Source: Escherichia coli (GTDB lineage: Bacteria; Pseudomonadota; Gammaproteobacteria; Enterobacterales; Enterobacteriaceae). From it: a stretch of DNA of 64,000 bases. This document shows, piece by piece, positions 4,604 through 5,522 of the stretch (within the stretch, counting starts at the first letter, position 1; the number at the start of each line of letters is the position of its first letter). The translations under genes and the position numbers were made by a program. The stretch lies in NCBI RefSeq assembly GCF_003334765.1, contig NZ_QOWT01000002.1. One strand, given 5' to 3'. The notes beneath the pieces were generated by a model. That model was not told the origin of the DNA. It searched no databases and saw only the letters and a program-made list of their open reading frames with translations.

Positions 4604-5522
4604 ATATTATCACTTACTGGCGGCTCATACTGAGCTGGTTAATGCTGTGCACACACAAACAAGCAATTCCATTTGTAATGTGCCTCCCTGGCAGTTTCAT
4701 CCGGAACCCGGACGAAAGTAAAAATGCATATGAGTTGCACTAAAAAAGCGACTCACATTGTTCCGTTATAATGCCTGAAGTAGATCACAGAATATATCTT
4801 CAGGGATCGCATATCTATTAAGTTACTCACTCTTTTCTATTTATGACATGCGCGTGTTTGTATAAATGTAAATGTGAGTCCTTGTTCCACTCTCGTGCAG
4901 CATCGCTGGTCATACGCGAACACGTACCAACAGCAATGGTGAGGCGGCATCAAGAGCAGGGATCCGTCATTTATCCGAGCATTTTACCCCAAAAACCTTT
5001 TATTTATAAGGGTCATTGCGAATTATCTGATGCAAAGTTATGTTATGTTAGGCAAAGTAATCTTCTATTATTAATAAGCACATCAAAACCTTTTTGAATA
5101 TTAAATAATAATTAATTAGCATCATCCTCATTCATTAATTCCGCTTAACAATAGTTTCACACCTTGCCCCCATTGCGACACCTCGGAAATCATCACGCAG
5201 TTAAACTCTCCGTAATGAGGAAATATCATCATCGCGTTTCATTAGTGAATTCTTAAATGAGGCATTTTCACACAATTATCTTACAGATAAAAAAACCAGA
5301 CTTACAATTAAGAATCAGAACAATTCACTATATAACATTGCATGTAAAGCATATACACCTCATTATTTTGTCATTATTAAGTTATTAACAGCACAATCGA
5401 GCCTTCCCCTCTGGCAAAATCTTATTCTGCAGACCTTCAAAACACCGTCCTGGGGGAGTACATTGTTCTAAGCTGACTTCCACGGCAGGGAGTGGCGATA
5501 ACAGCAAAAAAGGTCAAGATTC

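Follow-up and report, generated by a model that had tools for sequence, protein, structure and literature searches.

The 919-bp gap between lrhA and alaA of Escherichia coli (positions 4604–5522 of the window, the 64,000-nucleotide stretch of contig NZ_QOWT01000002.1 that was analyzed) is best read as a divergent, multi-input control region without any gene, a reading to which we give a probability of about 0.9. lrhA lies to its left on the minus strand (3665–4603) and alaA to its right on the plus strand (5523–6740), and the gap divides into an lrhA leader of 371 nt, an alaA leader of 52 nt and, between the two transcription start sites (TSSs), 496 bp of DNA. The region combines a long leader controlled by Hfq and small RNAs (sRNAs) with a long divergent spacer open to many transcription factors. 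LrhA stands at the top of a network controlling motility, fimbriae, RpoS and, according to recent reports, CRISPR-Cas, so how its level is set matters, and the gap is where it is set. Since all main elements of the gap have been published, the region is counted here as a known regulatory hub: it was others who established both TSSs, the binding of Hfq, the repressing effect of three sRNAs, a compensatory mutation for one of these and the RNA 3' ends. The present analysis maps these results onto the window and adds a base-level account of the gap, comprising the family-wide conservation of both promoters, of an island at a fixed distance and of the last 80 nt of the leader with its three motifs, together with the absence of conserved open reading frames (ORFs) and of conserved RNA structure.

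The original prediction, made from the letters of the window alone, had called the gap an unusually long non-coding interval, AT-rich in parts, and both points are borne out. The first 50 kb have ~50 intergenic gaps, most of them shorter than 100 bp, and this one is the longest; the runners-up are nuoA–lrhA (630 bp) and yfbV–ackA (337 bp). The GC fraction reaches its minimum of 0.25–0.27 at 5050–5149 and 5250–5399 and is 0.51 at 4850–4999. RefSeq leaves the gap free of annotation in NC_000913.3 (MG1655) and in every other sampled E. coli genome. The window is K-12-like, and its coordinates equal those of NC_000913.3 minus 2,402,038. Every one of the 5426 complete E. coli genomes has a match to the gap region, unbroken over at least 80% of its length in 5384 of them, and identity is at least 95% in all except one.

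Two outward promoters and the DNA between them

The transcription starts come from the genome-wide TSS table in the supplement of Kim et al. (2012), which gives lrhA a 5' untranslated region (UTR) of 371 nt (listed sequence ending ...GGGGTAAAATGCTCGGA, upstream part ending ...TTATAAATAAAAGGTTTTTGGGGTAAAATGCTCGGA) and yfbQ/alaA one of 52 nt (upstream sequence ending ...CTTCAAAACACCGTCCTGGGGGAGTACATTGTTCTAA). Mapped to the window, the starts are A4974 on the minus strand and A5471 on the plus strand, 497 bp apart and facing outward; the table has no further start in the gap, nor elsewhere between nuoA and yfbR. A 371-nt lrhA UTR is also stated in the text of Melamed et al. (2023), whose lrhA-lacZ primer SM079 and lrhA-M1 gBlock both begin ATAAATGACGG, which is window position 4974. 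The long lrhA leader that had been suggested for the gap is there, taking up 40% of it, and so is the suggested alaA promoter; the transcript map proposed as a check lists these two starts only. The elements on the DNA from the lrhA promoter to the alaA start codon are:

4981–5009, minus strand: lrhA promoter of the sigma-70 type, with −35 TTATAA (5009–5004), a 17-nt spacer and −10 TAAAAT (4986–4981)
5011–5062, no strand assigned: upstream element of the lrhA promoter, made up of the conserved CATCAGATAATTCGCAATGA (5030–5011) and a tandem 20-bp direct repeat
5103–5162, no strand assigned: conserved upstream island, with GTGTGAAA, TTGTTAAGC and AATTAAT-N17-ATTAATT followed by an AT-rich run
5415–5429, plus strand: Lrp-consensus-like site CAAAATCTTATTCTG, just 5' of the alaA −35, with two mismatches to YAGHAWATTWTDCTR and lying in conserved columns
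5436–5464, plus strand: alaA promoter, with −35 TTCAAA (5436–5441), a 17-nt spacer and −10 TACATT (5459–5464)
5471–5522, plus strand: alaA 5' UTR, 52 nt, holding the near-invariant block CUGACUUCCACGGCAGGGAG

For the comparison across Enterobacteriaceae, 80 orthologous loci were fetched and the gap was delimited in 78 species. Its length ranges from 764 to 1140 bp with a median of 943, and four blocks are conserved: 5423–5522 (alaA promoter and UTR), 5103–5162 (the island), 4983–5042 (lrhA promoter and upstream element) and 4604–4682 (the last 80 nt of the leader). Across these species the alaA −10 lies 58–65 nt from the alaA ATG and 304–312 bp (interquartile range, IQR) from the island, the island lies 168–170 bp (IQR) from the lrhA −10, a distance effectively fixed at ~169 bp, and the lrhA −10 lies 340–593 nt from the lrhA ATG. 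From this last distance it follows that the leader is always at least ~335 nt long, which makes its length a family-wide trait. The conservation of spacing in the lrhA–alaA gap is not exceptional, because the gap on the other side of lrhA (nuoA–lrhA, 3035–3664, 630 bp) is equally conserved in length, with an IQR of 626–631 bp across 74 species. That neighboring gap also has Term-seq ‘orphan’ 3' ends at ~3044/3048 and 3259 on the minus strand, upstream of nuoA. Two of the loci fetched are at odds with their titles. One, CACSKA010000019.1 (L060), is titled ‘Chryseobacterium sp. 18061’ but holds an Enterobacteriaceae lrhA–alaA locus with LrhA at 78% identity, and is probably contaminated or mislabeled; the other, NZ_JAATUR010000019.1 (L002), is titled E. 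coli but encodes an LrhA only 94% identical, and probably represents a cryptic Escherichia lineage. None of the 80 loci has an LrhA close to 100% identity, as expected of an E. coli representative.

Both promoters are conserved at base level. Read from the sequence, the lrhA TSS lies 7 nt 3' of TAAAAT; the −35 and −10 columns are conserved at 70–90% or more in the 78 species, and the −10 is TAAAAT, TAAGAT or TAGGAT in nearly all of them. The published alaA TSS likewise lies 7 nt 3' of TACATT, a −10 shared by 74 of the 78 species, and the −35 and the GGGGGAGTACATT block are kept across them while the spacer varies. The alaA promoter and its ~52-nt UTR had been deduced from conservation alone before the TSS table was compared, and the table agreed. 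Identity within the alaA UTR is 0.85–1.00 in close relatives and 0.7–0.83 family-wide. A promoter scan returned three other hits, at 5051–5022 on the minus strand and at 5280–5308 and 5368–5397, the number expected of shuffled sequence; none matches a mapped TSS, the latter two fall where conservation is poor, and the true promoters of lrhA and alaA scored under the threshold of the scan. The alaA promoter predicted by Shimada et al. (2014) from systematic evolution of ligands by exponential enrichment (SELEX), TTAAGA-17-TATAAC at ~5309–5337, is unsupported by the TSS map.

Between the outward promoters the GC fraction is 0.25–0.43 and the conserved blocks keep a fixed spacing, as in other divergent spacers. 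Mean identity of the island is 0.52–0.68, against 0.2–0.4 on its alaA-proximal side, and its AATTAAT-N17-ATTAATT forms an inverted repeat; the island is probably bound by a transcription factor or a nucleoid protein. The tandem 20-bp direct repeat nearer to lrhA (repeat family D2) consists of 5023–5042 and 5043–5062 (TTATCTGATGCAAAGTTATG and TTATGTTAGGCAAAGTAATC) and covers −49 to −88 of the lrhA promoter. Its sequence as read on the lrhA strand, ATTACTTTGCCTAACATAAC, is one that we take to resemble tandem 20-bp OmpR sites such as ompF F1. An OmpR signal in chromatin immunoprecipitation has been reported in the lrhA–alaA intergenic region, and Lrp has been reported to activate lrhA. The scan for the Lrp consensus gave 99 matches in the window where 77 were expected, a weak statistical lead. 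Shimada et al. (2014) grouped the ‘920 bp-long lrhA-alaA’ spacer with csgD–csgB and nanC–fimB as long spacers with many factors, and reported SELEX binding of RpoD holoenzyme within it.

The lrhA leader as a target of Hfq and small RNAs

The transcribed part of the gap on the lrhA side holds the following elements, numbered where useful from the lrhA AUG:

4604–4974, minus strand: lrhA 5' UTR, 371 nt, which binds Hfq and has UhpU, ArcZ, RprA and McaS as sRNA partners
4615–4623, minus strand: UhpU pairing site CGCCAGU, experimentally validated, adjoining the weak ribosome-binding site
4643–4654, minus strand: C/A-rich motif (G)CACAGCA at −47 to −40, in which CACAGC (−46 to −41) is at least 90% conserved in 43 species
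4661–4674, minus strand: linear motif AAAUGGAAUUGCUU at −71 to −58, nearly invariant

Binding to Hfq was reported by Bilusic et al. (2014), who co-immunoprecipitated an ‘ig-lrhA-alaA’ RNA with the protein as bands of 150 and 350 nt. A transcript of ~1.5 kb led them to re-assign this intergenic RNA to the lrhA mRNA, and lrhA RNA was raised in an hfq mutant. Melamed et al. (2023) then recovered chimeras of the leader with UhpU, ArcZ, RprA and McaS by RIL-seq (RNA interaction by ligation and sequencing) and found an lrhA-lacZ fusion to be repressed by UhpU, ArcZ and RprA. For ArcZ and RprA the evidence in that study is reporter repression only, while for UhpU the compensatory pair of UhpU-M1 and lrhA-M1 restored repression; the UhpU site at −16 is the only one in the leader validated in this way. 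The lrhA-M1 mutation was located here as a C to G change at −16, window position 4619, by comparison of the gBlock (...GAGCCGCGAGT) with the wild type (...GAGCCGCCAGT); the CGCCAGU of the leader is complementary to ACUGGUG of UhpU.

Conservation of the leader is concentrated where this pairing occurs. Identity over its last 80 nt is 0.61–0.70 in the 78 species, against 0.22–0.45 for the rest, and it takes the form of short linear motifs: the C/A-rich motif, AAAUGGAAUUGCUU and a third, GUAAGUGA, around −10. Within AAAUGGAAUUGCUU the nearly invariant positions are A57, A59, G61, G62, A63, T66 and T70 (alignment A1), and the conserved stretch at 4663–4674 reads AAAUGGAAUUGC. The CACAGCA motif at 4644–4650 is a predicted docking site for the UGCUGUGUGU motif common to McaS and RprA, with modeled duplexes of 12 bp for McaS (dG −15.5) and 8 bp for RprA (dG −13.0), energies that do not beat those of shuffled controls. 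Unrestricted RNAduplex runs of whole sRNAs against the leader were discarded, as the long structures that they yielded, with z of about +0.2 to +0.75, carry no meaning.

Two conserved GGA motifs also lie within 4664–4694, ~24 nt apart, one in CAGGGAGGC at about −94 and one in AAAUGGAAUU at about −68. Their spacing would presumably suit a CsrA dimer, which is speculation on our part. The alaA UTR has a GGA as well: its near-invariant block at 5473–5500, CUGACUUCCACGGCAGGGAGUGG (78 species), is predicted to form a short hairpin, ACUUCC/GGGAGU, with ACGGCA in the loop and GGA in the 3' arm. We take the CAGGGA core of this UTR to resemble a CsrA site, but a literature search gave no support for it. 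For a CsrA link through the GGA motifs of both leaders the search likewise gave no support, one paper mentioning LrhA only as a regulator.

Leader fragments and the proposed working of the region

RNA 3' ends were taken from the Term-seq supplements of Adams et al. (2021), the coordinate convention of which was checked against the printed 61-mers. Three features of the leader, counted from the TSS (+) or the AUG (−), are concerned:

4889–4895, minus strand: RNA 3' ends, Term-seq 2406933 (4895, +80; in two condition sheets) and 2406927 (4889, +86; LB medium, optical density 0.4)
4898–4941, minus strand: stable hairpin at leader nt 34–77, directly 5' of the +80 end, in a GC-rich, Escherichia-specific segment
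4653, minus strand: RNA 3' end at −50 from the AUG, Term-seq 2406691(−)

The ends at +80 and +86 define an abundant leader fragment of ~80–86 nt, with read counts of 25,000–78,000 against 41,000–47,000 for the lrhA mRNA 3' end. The TSS at 4974 and the end at 4653 delimit a second fragment of 322 nt, which may correspond to the Hfq-bound band of ~350 nt. All of these ends belong to the ‘orphan / upstream of ORF’ class of that data set, in whose supplements the lrhA fragments are listed without follow-up. The ‘primary’ Term-seq 3' end of the lrhA mRNA itself is at 3634/3635, ~30 nt past the stop codon; it precedes, rather than follows, a GC-rich hairpin with a U-tract (GAGCCGCTGGGG...CCCCAGCGGCTTTTTTTT, ~3583–3626).

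Long leaders such as that of rpoS are known sites of premature termination, and regulated attenuation, in which termination or pausing at +80/+86 or −50 would set the amount of full-length lrhA mRNA, finds further support in the position of the abundant ends directly 3' of a stable hairpin and in an intrinsic-terminator score of 3.75 at −50. The hairpin segment does fold, leader nt 1–80 at −22.2 kcal/mol (z = −1.4) and nt 1–90 at −32.4 kcal/mol (z = −2.1), and at −50 the RNA ends at the base of a weak A-U/G-U hairpin. However, no U-tract follows the +80/+86 or the −50 end when the sequence is read, the terminator scan is blank inside the gap, the Rho score of 1.06 at −50 is not significant (the end is not Rho-dependent), and the hairpin is limited to Escherichia. 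Attenuation is therefore regarded as improbable.

The first 86 nt of the leader (4889–4974) are the most divergent part of the gap, only 0.55–0.59 identical to two sister Escherichia species, while the flanks (the promoter and the remaining leader) are 0.77–1.0 identical. Within E. coli the same 86 nt are 95–100% identical, and the segment is GC-rich in Escherichia only. Such divergence between better-conserved flanks suggests either a lineage-specific replacement or fast evolution.

Another proposal takes the fragments of ~80–86 nt, of 322 nt or both to be functional trans-acting, Hfq-dependent RNAs, for instance sponges of McaS, ArcZ, RprA or UhpU, and not decay intermediates. Term-seq reads are more numerous at the +80 end than at the 3' end of the lrhA mRNA, and leader fragments are enriched on Hfq while barely visible in total RNA (Bilusic et al., 2014). 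Of the sRNAs, McaS forms chimeras with lrhA most often, although it does not regulate the gene, and Melamed et al. (2023) themselves propose that McaS is inhibited; the end of the 322-nt fragment falls within the predicted McaS duplex. Against this, the leader fragments have no known trans target or phenotype, their 5' 86 nt are the least conserved part of the gap and show no family-wide structure, and the motifs at −47 to −40 and at −16 lie at or past the 3' end of the 322-nt fragment, while the 80-nt fragment contains none. We consider the proposal unlikely; were it true, the lrhA promoter would yield a trans-acting regulator besides an mRNA, one that could sponge McaS and other sRNAs of the network of RpoS and motility. 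Because the 5' 86 nt differ so sharply between Escherichia species, any trans function of the 5' fragment would have to be evolving fast.

The preferred reading, that of a divergent control region without a gene, has led us to propose the following working. RNA polymerase starts lrhA at 4974 on the minus strand and alaA at 5471 on the plus strand, in opposite directions, from either side of AT-rich DNA that would carry conserved protein-binding blocks, Lrp and OmpR having been placed there by published work. The 371-nt untranslated leader would keep LrhA synthesis low: Hfq binds it, and UhpU, ArcZ and RprA repress translation of the reporter, UhpU by base-pairing at CGCCAGU, 12–20 nt 5' of the AUG and beside the weak ribosome-binding site, and the other two probably by pairing as well. 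Leader RNA also ends at +80/+86 and at −50, we infer through cleavage or termination, which would leave Hfq-bound fragments of ~80–86 nt and 322 nt.

Several observations weigh against this reading or limit it. In the TSS table the lrhA start is supported by 11 reads only, and databases have also carried a short lrhA 5' UTR; since Bilusic et al. (2014) in addition saw a species of ~1.25 kb with a coding-region probe, a second, proximal lrhA promoter or a processing site may exist. For the 150-nt Hfq-bound band the mapped 3' ends offer no explanation. The proteins proposed for the island and the repeats are putative assignments, made at less than base resolution. In the windowed duplex search the energies were no better than for shuffled leaders and the validated UhpU site ranked only second, which is why the sRNA sites other than that of UhpU are labeled predictions. 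Lastly, conservation of the central part of the leader is poor outside Escherichia, and much of the leader's length may therefore matter only as a spacer or within a lineage.

Tests for further genes and structures, and related control regions

The gap holds no independent sRNA gene, leader peptide, coding ORF or riboswitch-like element by the tests applied to it. One reading frame had been singled out in the original prediction:

4843–5097, plus strand: ORF84, a chance ORF of 84 aa starting with ATG, antisense to the beginning of the lrhA leader with its TSS

ORF84 had been judged non-coding for want of a Shine-Dalgarno context, and this judgment holds. The sequence 5' of its ATG is CTCTTTTCTATTT, which lacks a purine-rich Shine-Dalgarno; a frameshift, a stop or a missing start leaves it intact in 0 of the 15 nearest species (it is frameshifted or stopped in sister Escherichia, and in E. 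albertii has no ATG and contains stops); and no RefSeq E. coli genome sampled annotates it. It had also been called the only ORF in the gap, which is right for ORFs of at least 60 aa, but ~25 shorter ones are present. Among ORFs of at least 12 codons on both strands, none has its start, reading frame and stop all preserved through Escherichia, Citrobacter and Salmonella, and the suggestion of a leader peptide falls with this result. The best kept is intact in at most 7 of 15 close species and lies antisense to the invariant alaA UTR, while those in the leader are intact in just 0–2 of the 15. Translation of ORF84, or of a short ORF within the lrhA leader, into a functional small protein or a leader peptide is very improbable. 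What speaks for it is a 28-codon ORF at 4614–4700 on the minus strand, whose TAA 10 nt before the lrhA AUG gives a geometry that fits translational coupling, but this ORF is intact only in two other Escherichia species, in which the nucleotides are identical anyway, and like ORF84 it has neither a Shine-Dalgarno nor a RefSeq annotation.

The same holds for an sRNA gene inside the gap that would be transcribed independently from a promoter of its own. The length of the gap and the original classification of the Hfq-bound RNA as ‘intergenic’ (Bilusic et al., 2014) might seem to favor such a gene, for which the gap had been named a candidate location. The TSS table lists no starts in the gap but those of lrhA and alaA; the Term-seq 3' ends between 2,406,600 and 2,407,199 (a range that stops short of the alaA-proximal part of the gap) are without exception on the lrhA strand within the leader; and the discoverers of the RNA re-assigned it to lrhA. 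A scan for terminators found no terminator-like site within 4604–5522, and an Rfam scan of the gap at E-values up to 10 returned only chance-level hits (CRISPR-DR55, mir-136, snoRNAs and rliB), far under their gathering scores. Finally, 4975–5435 is conserved as spaced short blocks, in the manner of protein-binding DNA. An independent sRNA gene is accordingly a very doubtful proposition; the small RNA species present are the leader-derived, Hfq-bound fragments already published, which are not independent transcripts.

Conserved RNA structure was also looked for, as the original prediction had advised, and none was detected. RNAalifold found a consensus structure of 0 pairs in 43 species; in the candidate hairpin at 4622–4634, 63.4% of cells were paired, against 62.5% in shuffled columns; and the first 90 nt of the leader gave no family-wide folding signal (mean z −0.6, 78 species). 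The leader as a whole folds somewhat better than its shuffles (z = −2.4), as might be expected of a structured sensor that acts in cis, for example a riboswitch or an RNA thermometer, but with no Rfam match at E = 10, no pairs in RNAalifold, no covariation and conserved positions that form linear motifs, such a sensor is hardly credible.

The control region finds its closest parallels among known leaders and spacers. Like the leaders of rpoS, csgD and flhDC, that of lrhA is a 5' UTR of hundreds of nucleotides that binds Hfq and several sRNAs, and like those genes lrhA encodes a master regulator in the network of motility, biofilm and RpoS. Several sRNAs are shared: ArcZ and RprA have rpoS as a further target, as McaS has csgD and flhD. 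Unlike rpoS, which ArcZ and RprA activate, lrhA is repressed by its three effective sRNAs, and an inhibitory hairpin in its leader, again unlike in rpoS, has no covariation support. Like csgD–csgB (755 bp) and nanC–fimB (1456 bp), lrhA–alaA is listed as a long type-A spacer, bound by RpoD holoenzyme and open to the input of many transcription factors, and it shares with long divergent spacers an AT-rich composition, two outward promoters and conserved block spacing. It differs from both in that ~40% of the gap is transcribed leader, and its mapped factor sites are far fewer than those of csgD.

Orthologous leaders are those of hexA in Photorhabdus, Xenorhabdus and Pectobacterium, pecT in Dickeya and pigU in Serratia. 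According to a review, ArcZ pairs 5' of the ribosome-binding site in two of them, at −50 to −42 in Photorhabdus hexA and at −84 to −58 in Dickeya pecT. These intervals overlap the E. coli motifs at −47 to −40 and −71 to −58, an overlap by position only, since those genera lie outside the alignment.

Transposon insertions in the E. coli gap raise LrhA, and those in the orthologous Serratia gap, between the same gene pair (pigU–alaA), de-repress the regulator and raise PigU. Natural insertion sequences (ISs) recur in the gap of E. coli strains as well. IS1 lies in the lrhA leader of strain NT1N31 (junction overlap 4847–4857), and IS5 lies at −137 from lrhA (~4740) in a Keio acrA deletion strain, where CTAA at ~4739–4742 is presumably a typical IS5 target. 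In strain SCPM-O-B-12142 an IS1 stands at a deletion junction at 5356, with elaD through lrhA gone and alaA retained. Such IS events in the gap probably change the level of LrhA and, with it, motility.

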